Shown: piece after piece, positions 16,221 through 25,844 of the stretch
Layout: each line of letters begins with the position of its first letter
Position numbering within the stretch: position 1 is the first letter of the stretch
Assembly (NCBI GenBank): GCA_030587475.2
Contig: JAUQYZ020000031.1
Location: 1 to 31,155, forward strand
DNA: 31,155 nt
Origin: Candidatus Sigynarchaeum calidifontis
Lineage (GTDB): Archaea; Asgardarchaeota; Lokiarchaeia; Sigyniarchaeales; Sigyniarchaeaceae
Direction of reading: 5' to 3'
Translations under genes and position numbers: made by a program
Notes under the pieces: generated by a model
Seen by the model: only the letters and a program-made list of their open reading frames with translations
Told to the model about the DNA's origin: nothing
Database searches by the model: none

Positions 16221-16448
16221 ATGGCGGATTTGAAACTCGACACGCTTGGGAAGAAATGTCCCATGCCCGTCCTATTGGCGAAGAAAGAAATGACGAAAAT
16301 GGCAGCTGGCGACGTGTTGACCGTCACGGCTGACGATGCAGGGGCGCTGAAGGATATTCCAGCCCTCGTGAACAAATCACCTGGCTTTGCAATCTCGGAA
16401 TCGAAGCAAGAAGGCAATATCATCACGATCAAGATCAAGAAGGCTTGA
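16221..16448 (+). CDS. tusA: Sulfur carrier TusA/SirA family
   Basis: LDTLGKKCPMP (CPxP) and VTADD...DIP. Confidence 0.93.
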   Translation: MADLKLDTLGKKCPMPVLLAKKEMTKMAAGDVLTVTADDAGALKDIPALVNKSPGFAISESKQEGNIITIKIKKA

Positions 16449-16467
16449 AATTCGCGGGGGATATCAC

Positions 16468-16836
16468 ATGGCAAAGTTCACGTTCGTGGTCTGCACGGAG
16501 CCGTACAAGTACCAGGGCATCGAGTCGATGCTCAACCTGGCCGAGGCCGTGTTGAAAAAAGGCCACGAGATCGGCATGATCTTCCTGTATGGCAGCGGCG
16601 TGATGAACATGAAAAAAGACATCAGCACGGGCAGCGACACGAGGAACATCCCCGAGCGCCTCCAAGCCCTCGTGACGGCGAATAAGATCAAGCTCGTCGG
16701 TTGCACGACGTGGATCGGCTTGTGCGGGCTCGAGCAACGTGATTTCATCGATGGTGGCGCCGAGGAGGGGCTCGGTGACCTGGCGACGGCGGCTCGGGCA
16801 TCGGACAAGGTCGTGTTCTTCGGAGGCGGGAACTGA
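16468..16836 (+). CDS. dsrE: DsrE/TusD family sulfur relay protein
   Basis: EPY, KGHEI..IFLYGSGV, active-site region LVGCTTWIGLCGL, GLGDL...SDKVVFF. Confidence 0.88.
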   Translation: MAKFTFVVCTEPYKYQGIESMLNLAEAVLKKGHEIGMIFLYGSGVMNMKKDISTGSDTRNIPERLQALVTANKIKLVGCTTWIGLCGLEQRDFIDGGAEEGLGDLATAARASDKVVFFGGGN

Positions 16837-16848
16837 GGTGGCGTGAAC

Positions 16849-17217
16849 ATGGTCGAATCGATCATCATCCTCTCGGATCGCAGCCCAGTGGGCTCCAACT
16901 CGGCAGTCGAGGCGATCCGCATGGGTGCGGGATTAACCGCGCTCGGCGACACGATACCGACGAAGGTCGTCCTCTCCGGGGATGCGGTGCTCTTGATGGC
17001 TAAAGACGCGGATCCTACCGCCGTGAAACAAGACACGATCAATAGCGTCATGGAAATGGCCGATCTCAGCGACCTGGAGATCTACGTCGTGAAGGAGGCG
17101 CTTGGGGACGCGGGCTTGCAGCAAGACGACCTGCGCTCCTACGCGAAGCTCAAGATCGTGAGCCAGGCCGAGCTCTCGTCGATGGTCGCTGGCGCGGCCA
17201 CGACGTTCCGGTTGTGA
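16849..17217 (+). CDS. dsrF: DsrF/TusC family sulfur relay protein
   Basis: SPVGSNSAVEAIR, GDAV, IYVVKEAL...GL. GAGGTG 8 nt upstream of the ATG. Confidence 0.85.
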   Translation: MVESIIILSDRSPVGSNSAVEAIRMGAGLTALGDTIPTKVVLSGDAVLLMAKDADPTAVKQDTINSVMEMADLSDLEIYVVKEALGDAGLQQDDLRSYAKLKIVSQAELSSMVAGAATTFRL

Positions 17218-17222
17218 GGCGA

Positions 17223-17576
17223 ATGCACGTGGCGACGACGAAAAAACACGACATCGTGTACCTGGTCGGGCACAGTGCCCGGCAAGAATGCCAGCTAGAA
17301 AATATCATTCCGATCGTAGACTCGCAGTATGAATCCGGCAAGGATGTAGGTATCGTGCTAATGCAAGATGGCGTGATCGGCACGTCGAAGCGCGGCACCG
17401 TGCCAGACACGTTCAACTATTTCACCGAGATGGACATCCCGGTGCATGTTCTCGCGCCGGACTTGAAAGCCCGGGGTATCAACCCTGGCCAGTTGATCGA
17501 CAAGGTCGACGTGATCACGTACGAGGATCTCGTCGACATCCTGGTCGAATCGAGCAAGATCGTATCAATATTGTAA
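17223..17576 (+). CDS. dsrH: DsrH/TusB family sulfur relay protein
   Basis: VLMQDGV, VLAPDLKARGI, ITYEDLVDI. Start at 17223 or GTG 17229. Confidence 0.88.
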   Translation: MHVATTKKHDIVYLVGHSARQECQLENIIPIVDSQYESGKDVGIVLMQDGVIGTSKRGTVPDTFNYFTEMDIPVHVLAPDLKARGINPGQLIDKVDVITYEDLVDILVESSKIVSIL

Positions 17577-17627
17577 TCAGAATCAGGACTAGTGATATAA
17601 AGACAGCAAACAACCGAGTGAAAAACC

Positions 17628-18071
17628 ATGGCAGTGAAAAAACTGAACTTCATCATCGCCAACAACGACTTCGAGACGTTCAACAAGATGCTCATCCTCG
17701 GCACGACCGCCGCGGCCATGGACATCGAGGTGAACTTTTTCTTCACGTTCTGGGGGTTGTACTTGATCAAGAAAGGGTACAAGCCGAAGGTGAGCGGGAT
17801 GGGCAGCTTGATGGCAGGCATGGCCACATCCATGTTCACCAAGCTTATGAAGGAGTCGGGCATCGAGGATCCCATCAAGATGCTCAAGGAGGCGCACGAC
17901 AGCGGCAAGCTCAAGCTTTACCCGTGCTCCATGACCCTGGACATGCTCGCCAAGGCACCCATGAGCTACAAGTTGAAGAAAGAGCAGCTGCTCGATTTCG
18001 TCGAGGCACCTGTTGGCGCGGCCTCGTTCCTGGAAATGTGCGACGGGGCTGATAGCATCATCCACATGTGA
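17628..18071 (+). CDS. DsrE2-type (DrsE_2) sulfurtransferase
   Basis: TTAAAMD.EV.FFFTFWGL, YPCSMTLDM, VGAASFLE. Confidence 0.88.
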   Translation: MAVKKLNFIIANNDFETFNKMLILGTTAAAMDIEVNFFFTFWGLYLIKKGYKPKVSGMGSLMAGMATSMFTKLMKESGIEDPIKMLKEAHDSGKLKLYPCSMTLDMLAKAPMSYKLKKEQLLDFVEAPVGAASFLEMCDGADSIIHM

Positions 18072-18194: not shown

Positions 18195-18785
18195 ATGAGT
18201 GAAACCGTCCCAGTAAAAAAACAATTCAAGACCGATGCAGAATACGACGAGAATTTCTTCAAGGACATCGAGAGGCGATCCAACATCTGGTCTTGCATCC
18301 AATGCGGCACGTGCACCGCGTCGTGCGAGTCTGGCAGGTGGACTGCACTCAAGACGCGCAATATCATCCGGAAAGTCGTGCTCGGAGACCTTTCCGTTCT
18401 CGATGACCCCGACATCTGGCTCTGCACGACATGTTACAACTGCTTGGAACGATGTCCAAGAGATGTGCGACCGACCGACGTGATCATCGAGCTGCGAAAC
18501 ATGGCCGCCAAGCGCGGCAACATGCATCCCGCGCACAAGAAGACGGTCGGTTTCTTGAAGGAAACAGGCCACGCGGTGCCTATTAACGATCAAGTCCGGA
18601 AACAACGGAAGGACCTCGGGCTCGACGAGCTGCCCCCGACGCTTTTCAAATTCAAAATGAATGGTGATGACAAGGTGCTCAAGAATATTCACGCCAAGCT
18701 CTTCAACGTCGCCAACATCGAGAAGGCATCAGGGCTTGCAAAACTTGAAGGCAAGTCAAAGGATAAAAAGTCGGAGGAAAAATGA
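18195..18785 (+). CDS. hdrC: Heterodisulfide reductase subunit C
   Basis: CIQCGTCTASCESG...IWLCTTCYNCLERCPR.V.PTDVII.LRN...ETGHAVP, methanogen type. Confidence 0.95.
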   Translation: MSETVPVKKQFKTDAEYDENFFKDIERRSNIWSCIQCGTCTASCESGRWTALKTRNIIRKVVLGDLSVLDDPDIWLCTTCYNCLERCPRDVRPTDVIIELRNMAAKRGNMHPAHKKTVGFLKETGHAVPINDQVRKQRKDLGLDELPPTLFKFKMNGDDKVLKNIHAKLFNVANIEKASGLAKLEGKSKDKKSEEK

Positions 18786-18786
18786 A

Positions 18787-19686
18787 ATGGTGAAGGAAAA
18801 AACGTTTGCATTCTTCCTTGGATGCATCGCGCCCAACCGGTACCCGCAGCTCGAGAAGGCAACGAAGTTTGTAATGGAAAAAATCGGGTATACCTTGCTC
18901 GATATGGAACAAGCAAGCTGCTGTCCTGCCCCGGGGGTTTTCAAATCATTCGACAAGTACGACTGGATGGTCGCGGCGGCACGCAATATCGTGATCGCTG
19001 AACGTCTGGATGCCAATCTCGTTACAATATGTAACGGCTGCTTCGGAACGCTACAAGAAGTTAACAAGCATCTAAAAGAGGATCCAAAAGCCAAGGAATA
19101 CGTGAATGCGCGCCTCAAGGAGATCGGTGATTACGAGTTCAAGGGCACGATCATGGTTCGTCATGCCGCCGAGGTACTCGCCTATGAGATAGGCCCAGAG
19201 GGCGTCGCCCCGTTCATTACCCGCAAGCTCAACGCCCGTGCAGTTATCCATTATGGATGTCACTTCTTGAAACCCACTCGCATCAGGGGGTTGGACAGTG
19301 CCGAGAAGCCGACCATGCTCGAGAACTTCGCAACCATTCTTGGTATCGAGTCGCTCGAATTCGAGAACAAGTACACGTGCTGCGGGGCTGGGGGCGGTAT
19401 CAAGGCGGCCCACGCGGTTCCGTCGATGAAAATTTTCGGGGAGAAGATGAAGGATATCGACAAGGTCAAGCCTGATTTCATCCTCGATATCTGTCCCTTC
19501 TGCCACTTGCAGTTCGAGACGGGCCAGGATTATCTAAATAAAAATGAAGAATGCAATTACGATTATCCCGTGCTTCACCTGTCCCAGGTCGTCGCCTGGT
19601 GCATGGGCATGGATCAAAAGTTCGTCGGGCTCCAGTACCAGCAGATGGGTCGCAATTATATCTTCCCCGAAAAGGAGGTCGCTTGA
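18787..19686 (+). CDS. hdrB: Heterodisulfide reductase subunit B
   Basis: [51 protein letters not shown]: all non-cubane cluster ligand motifs present. Confidence 0.96.
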
Positions 19687-19690
19687 TACA

Positions 19691-21709
19691 ATGCCGGAAC
19701 ATGTGAAAAAAGAGAAGGATGTTACTGCCAAGCCCGTGACTGAGCCTAAAATCGGGGTTTTCGTCTGCGAGTGTGGCGGGAACATCTCCGGCAAGGTGCG
19801 GGTGCAAGACGTAGCGGCCTTCGCAAAAACCCTCCCCAACGTCGAGGTGGCCGAATATAACTTCTCCATGTGCAGCTCCGTCGGGGTTGATATGATCAAG
19901 AAAGCCATCGAAGAAAAAGGGATAGACCGTACCGTGGTTTGTTCGTGTTCCAAGGCCCAGCACGGACCGACGTTTGCAAGAGCCATCGAGGAAGGTGGCC
20001 TTAACAAGCACATGCACGAGCAAGTGAACATCCGCGAGTGGGACTCGTGGGTAACGAAAGGTAAGGACGAGGCGACCGAGAAAGCAAAAAAAGCCCTCGA
20101 AGCGGGCGTGAACCGTTCCCGGAAGCTCGAGCCCGTCGAGACCCGGCAGATCCCCGTCACGAAAGCGGCTTTAGTCATAGGCGGGGGTATCGCGGGCTGC
20201 CGTGCAGCCATGGACCTGGCAAACCTGGGCGTTCCCGTGTATCTGGTCGAGCAATCTCCAACCATTGGTGGACACATGGCCCAGTTATTCAAGACATTTC
20301 CCACGAACGAGTGCCCTCAATGCAGTATCTCCCCTCTTACAAACGGGGTGGCCAATAACAAGAATATCACGCTCTTCACGAATGCATCAATCAAGAAAGT
20401 CGAAGGTTCCATCGGCAAGTTCGGTGTCGACATCGAGATAAAGCCACGGTACGTGGAATCGAATTGCACGAGCTGTGGCAAGTGTAGTGATGCCTGCCCG
20501 GTCGAGGTGCCTTCGGAATGGGACAGCGGTATGACGTACCGCAAGGCCATCTATAAACCCTTCCCGCAAGCAATTCCCGCGACATTCATTCGCGACAAGA
20601 ACGCGTGTATCGAGTGCAACACGTGCGTGAACGTGTGTCCCGTCGATGCTGTCAATTTCAAGCAAAAAAAGCAAGAGGTGCAAGTCGAGGTTGGTACCAT
20701 CGTCGTTGCCGTTGGTTATGACGAGTACGATCCAACTGAAATCGAAGCGTATCATCATGGCGACAAGGGATACGAGGACGTGATCACGCAGCTCAAGCTC
20801 GAGCGCATGATGACCCCTGTTTCCATCACGGGTGGCGAAATCTTGCGCCCGAGCGATGGCCGCGTGCCGAAGAAGCTCGTCATGATTCAATGCGTCGGCA
20901 GCCGGAACGAACAGGTCGGTAACAAGTATTGCACGGGCGTGTGTTGCATGTTCGCGCTAAAAAATGCCCAGATTATCAAGGAAAAGCATCCCGAAATGGA
21001 CATCACGATCTGTTACATCGACATCCGTACGCCGGGGCTCCAATACGAGGAATTTTACAAGCGTGCCCAGACTCTCGGCGTTCGGTTCATCCGCGGCCGC
21101 CCGTCCGAGATCGCTCGTGACCCCGCTAGCGGGCAACTACACGTTATTGTCGAGGACACGCTCTCCATGACTCCCCTCGCGTTGCAAGCAGATATGGTCG
21201 TCCTTTCGGCCGCCATGGTTCCCCCGAAAAGTATCGGAACACTTGGGTCAAGCTTGCACGTGCTACGCAGTGCCGAGGGATTCATCAAGGAGTATCACAT
21301 CAAGATGAACCCGACATCATCGAGCAAGGGCGGCATCTTTATCGCAGGTGCTATTCAAGGTCCAAAAGATATCACGCAATCGGTTGCCCAGGCTGGAAGT
21401 GCAGCGGCTCTCGCCGCAGCACCGCTGGTCAAGGGATATATCGAGAAGGACATGCTAGTTCCCGTTATCGACGAGCAATTATGCGTTCGATGCAATGCGT
21501 GCGTGGCCGTGTGCCCTGTCTCGGCACTGGAACGGGCAGAGGATGGTAGGATCAAGGTCAACGACGTGGCATGCCGGTCTTGTGGCTTGTGCATGCCCGC
21601 GTGTCCAACGACGGCCATTCAGCTCAGGAACTTCCGCGACGACCAGATCCACGACGAGATCATTGCCCTTGCCGATAATCCAAAGGAAGGAGGTCATGTA
21701 CATGGTTGA
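19691..21709 (+). CDS. hdrA: Heterodisulfide reductase subunit A (672 aa)
   Basis: [37 protein letters not shown], inserted 2[4Fe-4S] ferredoxin, [25 protein letters not shown]-terminal ferredoxin. GGAGGT upstream. Confidence 0.96.
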
Positions 21710-22154
21710 ATCCAAAACCCGTGGTTGCAGCGTGCCAGCCGATCGTCATCAGCACAACATCGTCGTCTTCGCGTGCAACGAGTGCGGTCAAGGTGCATTC
21801 AACACGGCCGGCGTCGCCCGCATGGCTTACGACGCTTCGGTCACGATCGTCCCTGTCCAGTGTTCGGGCATGATCTCGCCAACCATGATCATGGACGCGC
21901 TGGCAGCGGGTGCTGACGCCGTCGGTTGCATTGGTTGTTGCTTCGGTGCGTGCCATTTCGTCAACGGGAATTTCCTCAACATGCACCGGGTCAAGCTCAT
22001 GAAAAAGCTATTTCTCGAAATGGGCTACAGCGACCAGTTCATCAATCATTACACCGCACGAGCGGCCGAAGGTGAAACCGCGGTTGGCGATGTCGAGGAC
22101 ATCCTCGAGCGCCTCGAGAAGGCGGAGAAACAAGGAGGGACGTTCAAACAATGA
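21702..22154 (+). CDS. mvhD: MvhD/FlpD [2Fe-2S] adaptor subunit
   Basis: FACNEC, VQCSG, GADAV...[23 protein letters not shown] 7 nt upstream; overlaps the hdrA stop. Confidence 0.92.
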
Positions 22155-23393: not shown

Positions 23394-24887
23394 ATGAGCT
23401 TTGAATTACTCAAGAACGAAGTGATCGACATCGGGCTTTGCCAGGGTTGCGCTAAGTGCGCCGGAACATGCAAGCACATCGAAATGGTCGATTTAAAACC
23501 CCATCTTAAGGACAAATGCATCCTCGAGGAAAAAGGTATCGATTGCGGGTTGTGTTATAGAACGTGCCCGCAAGTCATCCAGAAGCCATTCACAGAAATC
23601 AAGAAAGAACCACTCGAGGTCTTCTCGCTGCGAGCCAAGGACATGGCCGCGGGAAGCAAGGCTGGCGGGGCCGTGACGGCCCTAGCGAAAATGATGCTCG
23701 GCGACGGCGATGTCTCGCACATGATCTTGGTTCGTGATGGCGATGGGAAGCCCGTCACCGACGTGATTACCGATCCAGGCAAGATCAGCACCTATGCCGG
23801 GGTCACGCTCGGGCGGTCGGGGATCCTCGAGAAGCTCATCAAGACTCTTGGCGAGGAAAACAAGGGTGTCGGCATCGTCGCCGTGCCATGCGAGATCCGC
23901 GGCACGGAAGAGGTCGAGAGGCGAATGGGTGTTGAGATTGCCAAGATCGCCTTGTTCTGCAACTCGCAGATGCGGTCGGACAGGACAGATCTCGGCGAAA
24001 CGGTATCCCCGTGCGCGACGAATTGCCCCGCGGGCGTGAATGCAAGAGATTACACGGCCCTCATCCGCAGCGGCCGGTTCCAGGAGGCCATCGATCTCAT
24101 CCGGGAGGATAACCCGCTCCCCAGCGTTTGTGGTCGCATATGCACCCACGAATGCGAGCATGGCTGCACGCTAATGGGTGCCACGACCCCGATAGCCGTG
24201 CGCGAGCTCAAAAAATTCGTATCGGAATGGGAGATGAAAAATGCACGCAAGATCGACGAGCTGAAGGCGAGACCCCGGCCAAGCGGTAAAAAAGTGGCCG
24301 TCATCGGCGGTGGCCCGGCGGGCCTCACGTGCGCGTATTACCTCGCGCGCCTTGGTTATCGCCCTACGATCTTCGAGAAAACGGCCAAGCTCGGCGGCAT
24401 GTTGAAGGCTGGCGTGCCGTCGTTCCGGCTGCCCGACGAGGTCCTGGATTACGATGTCGACACTATCAAAGCTCTCGGCGTGGACGTGAAGCTCGAGACC
24501 CCGATAGGCAAGGATCTCACTTTCGATGCCTTAAAGGCGCAAGGATTTGAAGCATTTTTCATCGGCATCGGCCAATGGCAGCCCCGGACGCTCAAGACCC
24601 CCGGCGAGGATCTTCCCGGTGTCTACACGGCCATCGACTTCTTGCTCAACCGCAAGTACCGGTACTGGGAAAAGAAGGACGAGTTCAAGGACAAGACCCT
24701 GTACATACTTGGCGGTGGTCCCGTTGGTGTTGACGTTGCCCAGACTGCTTTGCGTCTTGGTGCCAAGAAAGTGTACCTGGCCGAGATCCGCACGGAAAAC
24801 GAGCTCAAGATCGTCGTCGACGATATCCCGGAGAACGAGCTGAAGTACATGGAATATTTATACTCGACCAACACGGTCAAGTTCTAA
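23394..24887 (+). CDS. N-terminal part of an FrhB/FdhB-GltD(NfnB-like) chimeric flavoprotein, ending at a premature in-frame TAA
   Basis: EVIDIGLCQGCAKC, CGLCYRTCP, GGAVTAL, VPCE, ALFC (FrhB), then PCATNCPAG, NPLPSVCGRIC..ECE..C, GGGPAG, GGML..GVP.FRLP, GGGPVGVD (GltD). Confidence 0.85.
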   Translation: MSFELLKNEVIDIGLCQGCAKCAGTCKHIEMVDLKPHLKDKCILEEKGIDCGLCYRTCPQVIQKPFTEIKKEPLEVFSLRAKDMAAGSKAGGAVTALAKMMLGDGDVSHMILVRDGDGKPVTDVITDPGKISTYAGVTLGRSGILEKLIKTLGEENKGVGIVAVPCEIRGTEEVERRMGVEIAKIALFCNSQMRSDRTDLGETVSPCATNCPAGVNARDYTALIRSGRFQEAIDLIREDNPLPSVCGRICTHECEHGCTLMGATTPIAVRELKKFVSEWEMKNARKIDELKARPRPSGKKVAVIGGGPAGLTCAYYLARLGYRPTIFEKTAKLGGMLKAGVPSFRLPDEVLDYDVDTIKALGVDVKLETPIGKDLTFDALKAQGFEAFFIGIGQWQPRTLKTPGEDLPGVYTAIDFLLNRKYRYWEKKDEFKDKTLYILGGGPVGVDVAQTALRLGAKKVYLAEIRTENELKIVVDDIPENELKYMEYLYSTNTVKF

Positions 24888-25844
24888 AAAAACGCCGATG
24901 ATACCCTCAAAGTTGTTATCCACAACGTTGGCTCTAAACCTCCATATCAGAAGATCGATGGAACGGATCGCGAGATCGTGGTCGACGCGGCGGTCATTGC
25001 CATCGGCCAGGCAACGGATTGGGCGGAGATCGACGCGGCCACCGGCGGCCAGATCAAGAAGGATCGCGGCAAGGTGGTCATCGACGAGCTCACGTTTGAG
25101 ACTAGCATGCCTGGCGTGTTTGCAGGCGGCGACATCGTCGTGCGCGGCAAGGCCGTCGCGATCGCGGCGGTCGCCCACGGGCGCGAGGCAGCGGTGTCCA
25201 TCGACAGGTACTTGCGGGGCGTGGATCTCCGCGAGGGGCGGCTCAAGAAGGACCGGAGTTTTTTCACCAAGCCGTTGATGCCCCCGAAACGTTATTCCGT
25301 CAAGGTTGACACGATGAAGGGGCAGACCGAAGATCTCTACCTGGACTGGAATGAAATCGACGGGTTGTTCACTGCAGAAGCGGCAATTGGTGAAGCCAAG
25401 CGTTGTTTGGCCTGCAACAACTTTTGCTCCCATTGCCAAGATTATTCGGGGGTCCTTGCTGATATCAGTGCAGGCGAGGTCGGATCGGATCCTGGTTACA
25501 CGACGGTGCTGGTTTGGACCGAGAAAGGTCGAAAACTCGTGCGCAAGGCATTGGATAGAGGATTGTTCGACCAAGGTAAGATCAACATGGACGCGGTGAA
25601 CGCGCACATCGTTCGGAAGTCCACGAGGGAGATGTGGAGTTACGAGAAACCCTTGCGCCAGAAGGTGCGCGAGTTTGTCGTCGACAAGGGCCCTGCAACC
25701 GTGAGCATGATTAGCGCCGCCATTGGTGCCAAACCCATCGACGTTCGTTACGAGGTATTGAGGTTGGTACAGGAACGCCAGCTCTCGATGAAACTGATCG
25801 AGGGCAAAGCCGAGCCAGAGTTTGATATTTATTGCGAAGAATGA
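24888..25844 (+). CDS. In-frame continuation of the same gene: GltD C-terminus, FrhB C-terminus and probable winged-helix tail
   Basis: Same frame as the previous ORF directly after the TAA: KNADD...IDGTDREIVVDAAVIAIGQ, TSMPGVFAGGD, EAKRCLAC, CSHCQDYSGVLADISAGEVGS.PGYTTVLVWTEKG. Confidence 0.85.
   Translation, partial: KNADDTLKVVIHNVGSKPPYQKIDGTDREIVVDAAVIAIGQATDWAEIDAATGGQIKKDRGKVVIDELTFETSMPGVFAGGDIVVRGKAVAIAAVAHGREAAVSIDRYLRGVDLREGRLKKDRSFFTKPLMPPKRYSVKVDTMKGQTEDLYLDWNEIDGLFTAEAAIGEAKRCLACNNFCSHCQDYSGVLADISAGEVGSDPGYTTVLVWTEKGRKLVRKALDRGLFDQGKINMDAVNAHIVRKSTREMWSYEKPLRQKVREFVVDKGPATVSMISAAIGAKPIDVRYEVLRLVQERQLSMKLIEGKAEPEFDIYCEE

Follow-up and report, generated by a model that had tools for sequence, protein, structure and literature searches.

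How a soluble Hdr complex receives its electrons when its operon holds no hydrogenase catalytic gene is the question raised by a locus of the Asgard archaeon Candidatus Sigynarchaeum calidifontis (contig JAUQYZ020000031.1), of which the first 31,155 nucleotides, referred to here as the window, were analysed. The last gene of its hdrABC-mvhD operon, here called the frhB::nfnB-like gene, had been described in an earlier note, made from the sequence alone, as an FrhB protein with a whole GltD/NfnB-like NAD(P)H module inserted inside it. We propose that the product of this gene is the subunit through which electrons enter a soluble HdrABC-MvhD complex, with a non-bifurcating module in place of the F420-channel lid of FrhB, and we put the probability of this reading at about 0.62. 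Judged by the residues of its dinucleotide site, such an Hdr operon is probably fed by NADH.

The gene and the parts of its product are arranged as follows, in coordinates of the window:

23394..25844, plus strand: whole frhB::nfnB-like gene, 816 codons and a TGA stop, with an in-frame TAA at codon 498
23394..23591, plus strand: N-terminal ferredoxin domain for two [4Fe-4S] clusters (residues 1-66; invariant cysteines 16, 19, 22, 26, 42, 51, 54 and 58)
23592..23960, plus strand: FrhB part 1 (residues 67-189; SKAGG 88-92, AGVTLGRSG 135-143, IALFC 185-189; ligands C166 and C189), based on a PF04422 match, alignments with Fsr and 8rja_E, the VIA-align match to 9r51_B (Z 21.6) and loop conservation of 0.81-0.87
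23961..25424, plus strand: inserted permuted NfnB/GltD-like module (residues 190-677) with two [4Fe-4S] cluster sites (cysteines 207, 211, 246, 250, 254, 258, 671 and 674, and K273) and FAD and NAD Rossmann folds, based on Pfam, sequence matches in the Protein Data Bank (PDB) and VIA-align
24711..24791, plus strand: second Rossmann dinucleotide site GGGPVG...KVYLAEIR (residues 440-466), with an acidic residue 464 and no YRR
24885..24887, plus strand: in-frame TAA, codon 498, inside the NAD-binding domain
25341..25424, plus strand: displaced "N-terminal" GltD segment ...EAKRCLAC (residues 650-677), now C-terminal in the module, three residues ahead of the CxxC of FrhB
25425..25628, plus strand: FrhB part 2 (residues 678-745; C678, C681, ADISAGEVGS), based on PF04432 profile positions 83-146 and alignments with 3zfs_C, 6qii_B and 8rja_E
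25629..25841, plus strand: C-terminal winged-helix domain (residues 746-816), based on an AlphaFold2 model of the tail, Foldseek, weak Pfam helix-turn-helix matches and an alignment of the tail

The start codon is an ATG with an upstream AGGAGG, 8 bases past the stop of the preceding gene, and is fixed by M1-S2-F3, invariant in an alignment of 42 homologs. From there the 816-codon protein runs through a two-cluster ferredoxin domain, FrhB part 1, the 488-residue module, FrhB part 2 and a winged helix. Every motif on which the original description relied was found in frame within 23394-25841: GGAVTAL (residues 91-97), VPCE (164-167), ALFC (186-189), PCATNCP (206-212), CGRIC (246-250) and GGGPAG (305-310) in the N-terminal half, and FAGGD (576-580), EAKRCLAC (667-674), CSHCQD (678-683), ADISAGEVGS (689-698) and TEKG (709-712) in the C-terminal half. 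The Pfam map showed a split FrhB with Fer4_20 and Pyr_redox_2 nested between its parts. FrhB_FdhB_N (PF04422) matched residues 80-137 (E 1e-7; 32.3 bits against a cut-off of 22, with 47 bits for the homolog P0123), FrhB_FdhB_C (PF04432) matched residues 663-728 by profile positions 83-146 of 150 only, and Fer4_20 and Pyr_redox_2 were placed at residues 205-283 and at residues 299-467 and 517-595, respectively. In sequence searches of solved structures, residues 4-174 matched the FrhB-like N-terminal half of Fsr, an F420-dependent sulfite reductase (7np8_A, E 2e-16), residues 6-72 the C-terminal ferredoxin domain of FrhG, residues 198-609 the NfnB of Thermotoga maritima (4ylf_B, E 7e-67; VIA-align Z 27.3) and residues 678-730 positions 192-244 of FrhB (3zfs_C, E 7e-8). 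The sequence and profile matches behind the nested FrhB-module-FrhB architecture are far beyond chance, and the Pfam map and the structure library agree on it.

Within the module, the cluster domain and the two-Rossmann fold were recognised by PF14691 (E 3e-20) and PF07992 (E 6e-15). The Fer4_20 match covered profile positions 30-111 only, and the absent start of the profile (positions 5-33) was found instead at residues 651-678, near the other end of the module. Residues 650-687 (…EAKRCLACNNFC…) aligned with a glutamate synthase small subunit of canonical form (7mfm_I, residues 25-63), and residues 596-684 were colinear with residues 487-577 of the NfnA of Caldicellulosiruptor saccharolyticus (9bov_A). 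The EAxRCLxC segment thus stands at 650-677, after the FAD domain, and not in the canonical N-terminal order of NfnB and GltD. The module is circularly permuted: the segment that opens a free-standing GltD or NfnB closes it here, and the length of about 500 residues first given for it came out at 488. In the first cluster motif the permutation separates the second cysteine from the third, so that the two ends of the module meet at a cluster, as an insertable cassette needs. Both junctions are tight: C189 of FrhB stands 17 residues ahead of C207 of the module, and at the far end C674 of the module comes three residues ahead of C678 of FrhB. At position 204 (window 24003-24005) 35 of the 42 family members have a cysteine, three residues before C207, as is C100 in StnC; the clade of the window carries Val there, so the extra cysteine would be dispensable or lineage-specific.

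The best matches of all were the NfnB-like domains of Bfu-type NfnA (9n5u_A, E 1e-85; 9bov_A) and StnC (8oh5_C), with which the module is colinear over residues 98-577 of 9bov_A and 97-567 of 8oh5_C. An AlphaFold2 model of the whole protein was built on 42 homologs and compared by VIA-align with about 48,000 solved chains, and the fold of the module was again closest to this kind (9n5v_A, Z 32.5 over model residues 190..679; 8oh5_C, Z 32.1).

The same model bears on the fate of the two FrhB parts. FrhB (9r51_B) aligned with it at Z 21.6 and a root-mean-square deviation (rmsd) of 3.4 A, over 225 of 282 residues and with model residues 67..756 running along chain residues 1..278, so that the parts on either side of the module refold, in the model, into a single FrhB domain, the outcome that an AlphaFold check of the two halves had been suggested to look for. 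Other chains of the FrhB family followed closely (8riu_E, Z 20.4; 8rja_K, Z 20.3; 8rvu_E, the ElpB of Elp-Hdr, Z 20.2), with further matches to HCAR (5dqr_A, Z 17.9) and Fsr (7np8_A, Z 17.8). Foldseek on the whole model listed NfnB-type matches only, and the FrhB fold appeared only with the wide VIA-align comparison.

What the module has displaced is a defined piece of FrhB. In the superposition about 57 residues are absent, corresponding to FrhB 135-191, and in an alignment with six other FrhB paralogs of the same genome exactly the 55-60 residues between LFC and CxxC, the lid, are missing; the native segment has been replaced, as the earlier note held. No contiguous, full-length FrhB C-terminal domain with its lid was found in the protein, PF04432 positions of about 40-82 being lacking, whereas the canonical paralogs of the genome keep the lid and match PF04432 positions 2-149. 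In FrhB the F420 access channel is formed by the domain of residues 128-188, and one of the cluster ligands is Cys134, in the LFC loop (PMC3930138). Because the replaced segment forms the access channel for F420, its loss agrees with a switch of donor, F420 giving way to a pyridine nucleotide, and argues against F420H2 in that role. A paralog of 304 residues in the same genome (contig C259; L088:877-1788, plus strand) is naturally lid-less, without PF04432 positions 40-92, and the QDGG, GSKY and GSVGS motifs are lost from it as well; possibly only an Fe-S remnant of FrhB is left.

None of 20 cysteines varies among the 42 homologs: the ferredoxin domain has eight of them, the FrhB cluster four and the module eight, which is enough for five predicted [4Fe-4S] clusters. 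The four of FrhB, said from the start to be kept, are C166, C189, C678 and C681, and they align with the LFC and CxxC positions of FrhB. Equally invariant is K273, aligned with K170 of StnC, an unusual ligand of the FAD-proximal cluster. In StnC the flavin was shown to be non-bifurcating, whereas bifurcating NfnB has a Glu there (PMC10482914), and this Glu was not found at the proximal cluster, K273 standing in its place. By its sequence, then, the module is assigned to the non-bifurcating StnC/Bfu-NfnA kind. The FAD Rossmann motif and Glu328 are canonical. These residues bear directly on the idea that the enzyme works like NfnAB, with the module FAD bifurcating electrons from NADPH and the FrhB part serving as one of the two exit branches. 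The homology of the module to NfnB/NfnL (E 7e-67) and the retention, as R345, of an Arg matching R201 of NfnL speak for such a mechanism, but the proximal cluster has the Lys of StnC and not the Glu of NfnB, the best matches are modules of Bfu-type NfnA and of StnC, whose flavin is non-bifurcating (PMC10482914), the YRR of the NADPH type is absent, no NfnA-like partner is encoded in the operon and HdrA already provides a bifurcating flavin, which together make it very improbable.

The nature of the dinucleotide is indicated by the second Rossmann fold of the module. All five NADPH-using references (the T. maritima, P. furiosus, T. sibiricus and C. saccharolyticus enzymes and Xfn) have YRR after strand beta-2, where A-E-I-R stands here. 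Position 464 is Asp or Glu in all 42 homologs, and position 465 is always Ile. An acidic residue at this place, 19 residues past the last position of the glycine motif, is the classical signature of NAD(H) use. The same reasoning has been applied to Glu286 of Bfu-NfnB (PMC12018979). Most modules of other hosts, including the closest one (P0126), carry YRR, and the acidic change is thus a feature of the FrhB-hosted clade alone. The hint of NADH that had been read from AEIR is thus stronger than was claimed, and the acidic residue 464 in place of YRR points to NADH as the donor.

The genes around this one define what the input would feed. It is the last of ten in the order dsrE-dsrF-dsrH-dsrE2-like-hdrC-hdrB-hdrA-mvhD-MvhG-like-frhB::nfnB-like:

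16387..18071, plus strand: dsrE, dsrF, dsrH and dsrE2-like genes (sulfur relay), by Pfam, in the same order in the Asgard loci that reach that far
18195..22154, plus strand: hdrC, hdrB, hdrA and mvhD, by Pfam (Fer4; CCG; HdrA-type FAD and Fer4; FlpD) and by synteny with L001-L016
22151..23386, plus strand: MvhG-like Fe-S subunit of 411 residues, directly upstream, by Pfam Oxidored_q6 only and by synteny

The listed open reading frames (ORFs) of hdrC to mvhD overlap, so their true starts lie somewhat after the ORF starts. Neither a [NiFe] large-subunit gene nor, by Pfam, an NfnA-like partner is present in the operon. In 16 Asgard loci (L001-L016), fetched from contigs of one genome per species, the ten-gene order is kept wherever the contig reaches. 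The content is that of a donor arm of the Elp-Hdr or Fdh-Hdr type: an FrhB-family subunit, an MvhD homolog, HdrABC and a putative relic, assigned by Pfam Oxidored_q6 alone. In two of the loci a second dsrE-dsrF-dsrH set lies a few kb downstream of the operon (L006:14383-15466 and L009:16091-17191, minus strand).

Of the solved complexes, ElpABC-HdrABC comes nearest to the arrangement as a whole: its donor arm is made up of an FdhA relic that is truncated and lacks cofactors, of ElpB, a member of the FrhB family, and of ElpC, an MvhD homolog; the FAD of ElpB takes electrons from F420H2, and clusters carry them on to the bifurcating FAD of HdrA (PMC12350162). As in our locus, ElpB (Methanothermobacter marburgensis, 8RVU) and the FdhB of Fdh-Hdr-Fmd are FrhB-family subunits encoded with an MvhD homolog and HdrABC, forming a donor arm to the flavin of HdrA and paired with a catalytically dead relic, a status that here is suggested by the Oxidored_q6 match alone; the fold of ElpB agrees with our model at Z 20.2 and an rmsd of 2.3 A. 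They differ in keeping the lid and oxidising F420H2 at the FAD of FrhB, where the protein described here has a 488-residue module of the NAD(H) type, and the relic partner of Elp derives from FdhA, that of our operon from a hydrogenase small subunit. By analogy with this complex, NADH would reduce the FAD of the module, and single electrons would pass through the two [4Fe-4S] clusters of the module to the FrhB cluster (C166, C189, C678, C681), on to the two clusters of the N-terminal ferredoxin domain, and then by way of the MvhG-like subunit and the [2Fe-2S] cluster of MvhD to the bifurcating FAD of HdrA. HdrA would then reduce ferredoxin, and HdrBC a disulfide or persulfide, for which the DsrEFH/DsrE2 proteins of the same operon are the probable carriers. 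Electrons could equally well run the other way, in a confurcating mode.

Several observations weigh against an NADH-fed input subunit of this kind. The model of the whole protein has a mean predicted local distance difference test score (pLDDT) of 74 and is low in the cluster-binding loops. In the clade of the window the acidic residue belongs to an E-I-R motif, whose Arg could permit some use of NADPH. CofE, CofH (over the cut-off) and CofD, for F420 biosynthesis, are encoded in the genome, as are five canonical FrhB paralogs, so F420 is probably available, and the chimera would be a specialised paralog and not a response to the loss of F420. The reading frame carries a premature stop, which we take up below. 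Finally, conservation in the three FrhB flavin loops reaches 0.81-0.87, whereas the FrhB N-domain as a whole stands at 0.70; since these loops are more conserved than the remaining FrhB domain, the FrhB flavin may still bind.

In FrhB the FAD is surrounded by loops 23-30 (QDGG), 71-77 and 131-138 (PMC3930138). The window protein has KAGG for QDGG, GVTL for GSKY and ALFC at the LFC loop, the first two of which had been called degenerate. At the level of the family that description is not fully supported: the motifs are altered, the family consensus being (A/S)(S/N)GG and GV(V/T)YGRSG with Q, D, S and K replaced family-wide, yet G-x-x-Y-G-R-S-G, GG and LFC are invariant or nearly so (G91, G92, G136, G140, R141, L187, F188 and C189 throughout; S142 in 40/42; Y139 in 37/42). 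What a true loss of flavin loops looks like is shown by the lid-less paralog on contig C259, in which all those motifs are gone.

One could therefore picture the protein as a junction of two flavins, in which FAD, and perhaps F420, is still bound by the FrhB half under the module and the subunit, no plain NADH wire, either links NADH with F420 or holds a second gating or bifurcating flavin. The degree of loop conservation, the invariant glycines and Arg, the near-invariant S142, the contrast with the C259 paralog and the F420 biosynthesis genes would all suit such a junction. We nevertheless regard it as unlikely: the domain of the F420 channel is gone (PMC3930138), throughout the family other residues stand for Q and D of QDGG and for S and K of GSKY, and NADH and F420 are near-equal in potential, so that linking them inside an Hdr complex would gain little. 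A flavin retained by the FrhB half below the module, which would give two flavins and five [4Fe-4S] clusters per subunit, seems to us similarly doubtful. The swap from F420 to a pyridine nucleotide put forward in the earlier note accordingly stands in part: the lost lid fits it, but as the FrhB flavin may remain, "addition" may prove the better word.

The in-frame TAA in the NAD-binding domain is the same in the genome assembly as in the window. The earlier note alludes to this interruption only by its phrase "repaired protein". A database protein of 816 residues (P0002), from two contigs, is otherwise identical and has Glu498, GAA for TAA; in the scan of genomes of the phylum given below, the internal stop occurs only in this genome's copy, the other full-length orthologs (at least 62) being intact. 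Recoding of the stop codon was rejected, as TAA is the working stop of dsrH in the same operon. This copy is thus either mis-called at one base or newly broken. In the latter case, a fresh pseudogene, the TAA would be real and the input subunit of the operon would not be made in this organism, as the agreement of window and assembly and the functional TAA of the same operon, with nothing to suggest recoding, would allow. Against it are the Glu498 protein on record from two contigs, the intact orthologs, the absence of any other accumulated change and the context of the site, a G/T base followed by a run of seven A, which is prone to base-calling error. We consider a fresh pseudogene quite possible, with the odds somewhat against it.

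The gene is confined almost wholly to a single Asgard order. A word-indexed search gave more than 120 full-length relatives of 806-825 residues and 52-90% identity, all named ones being Asgard archaea. In an exhaustive library of 50%-identity clusters the architecture was found in two full-length clusters and fragments only, the same permuted module in other hosts filling hundreds of clusters, and among the best 150 cluster representatives an FrhB host occurred only in those two clusters and fragments. Of 400 genomes of the phylum that were scanned, at least 63 have a full-length copy; two families of the window's own order account for all of these but one. By Pfam, the other hosts of the module are HdrA, an MvhD domain, an HdrD-like protein, ferredoxin and subunits of the Stn/Bfu type (HydA-like). 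The HdrD-like Asgard host (P0126, about 920 residues, with YRR) holds the module between HdrC-like two-cluster ferredoxin and HdrB-like CCG domains, and HdrD-like ORFs of about 920 residues are common in the same Asgard genomes (for example G217:C29:36675-38156). In P0133 (1172 aa), which is fused to HdrA, FlpD (MvhD) positions 1-83 precede the module, and MvhD thus also appears to serve as a host of the cassette. Apparent bacterial candidates for full-length relatives were rejected: L073 is of the Stn/Bfu type (Fer2_4, module and a molybdopterin domain, in that order) and adjoins a NuoF-like gene, and L020, L021, L023, L034, L036 and L059 are HdrA hosts.

In a tree of 143 module sequences (FastTree with Shimodaira-Hasegawa-like supports) the FrhB-hosted modules form one clade (support 100), a single origin that fits one insertion event within Asgard archaea. 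Their sister is the module of the HdrD-like host P0126 (support 100), apart from those of HdrA and Bfu/Stn hosts; the tree is rooted at its midpoint and does not tell from which host to which the module was passed.

Insertion of the module as such has precedents. In StnC (8OH5) and Bfu-type NfnA (9N5U/9N5V, 9BOV) it has the permuted order, the RCLxC after the FAD domain and the Lys at the proximal cluster, and it serves a larger Fe-S protein, into which it is built, as an electron port without bifurcation (E 1e-85; Z about 32), as we suggest for our protein; in Bfu-NfnA the domain has been termed "inserted" (PMC12018979). Unlike here, the host is a HydA/NuoG-like subunit of a NuoEF-type bifurcating enzyme, and the module has YRR and uses NADPH. 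Insertion in HdrA is known from HdrL of Desulfobacterium autotrophicum (PMC2702500) and HdrA9-11 of ANME-1 archaea (anaerobic methanotrophs; PMC9012536), and bacterial and Thermoplasmatota loci also had the module flanked by HdrA segments. The parallel with HdrL drawn at the outset is apt: an Hdr-system subunit has taken up the same permuted module, interpreted as an entry for NAD(P)H; but there the host is HdrA, within its ferredoxin domain, and not the FrhB of a donor arm, and the module clades are separate in the tree.

An NADH-driven Flx-Hdr has also been invoked for Asgard archaea (PMC7015854). FlxABCD-HdrABC of Desulfovibrio resembles our operon in its proposed function, as an NADH-driven HdrABC with an MvhD-like connector (FlxD); its input proteins are unrelated, and genes for FlxA, FlxB and FlxC are absent here. 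With canonical FrhB, the N-terminal half of Fsr and FpoF our protein shares the four cluster cysteines and the GG and Y..S of the flavin loops, and with Fsr also an N-terminal two-cluster ferredoxin domain joined to an FrhB fold, but in our protein the lid is missing and QDGG and GSKY are altered, and no catalytic partner such as FrhA or a sulfite reductase is encoded here. Module insertion in HdrA, StnC and Bfu-NfnA and NADH-driven Hdr were therefore known, and what appears to be new, as read from the sequence, is an FrhB host in which the module replaces the lid; no description of either was found in the searchable literature, mostly without subscription journals.

This result may have implications for how Asgard metabolism is reconstructed. 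Asgard operons of the Mvh/Hdr type are usually read as H2-dependent or Flx-like, and such readings enter models of syntrophy at the origin of eukaryotes, whereas the present operon suggests NADH-driven reduction of ferredoxin coupled to the reduction of a disulfide or persulfide. The protein also offers a natural example of a portable, permuted flavoenzyme cassette spliced between cluster ligands so as, it would seem, to alter the electron donor, and replacing precisely the flap of the F420 channel of FrhB.

The winged-helix tail was modelled alone by AlphaFold2 (pLDDT 84) and resembled Z-alpha, MarR and ArsR winged helices (template modelling score about 0.7, Foldseek). A cysteine near the C-terminus occurs in 27 of the 42 homologs and is penultimate in most of those. 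A fused substrate arm like DsrC/TusE was considered for the tail and rejected, as it is a generic winged helix without a DsrC match and its cysteine is found in those 27 only; a role in docking, regulation or nucleic-acid binding is possible.

The same genome holds other fusions of FrhB, namely an ORF of 940 residues on contig C108 (L085:946-3465) with DUF362 and one of 605 residues on contig C75 (L086:949-2763) with a DHODB-type Fe-S domain. In public databases the protein goes under "FAD-dependent oxidoreductase", "glutamate synthase beta subunit-like" or "F420 formate dehydrogenase family", names that would all mislead metabolic reconstructions. In the ESM Atlas two Asgard clusters pair FrhB with Pyr_redox_2, and as one representative has 911 residues, a longer variant of the chimera may exist; the automatic name of both clusters, "formate dehydrogenase (coenzyme F420) family protein", probably misleads.

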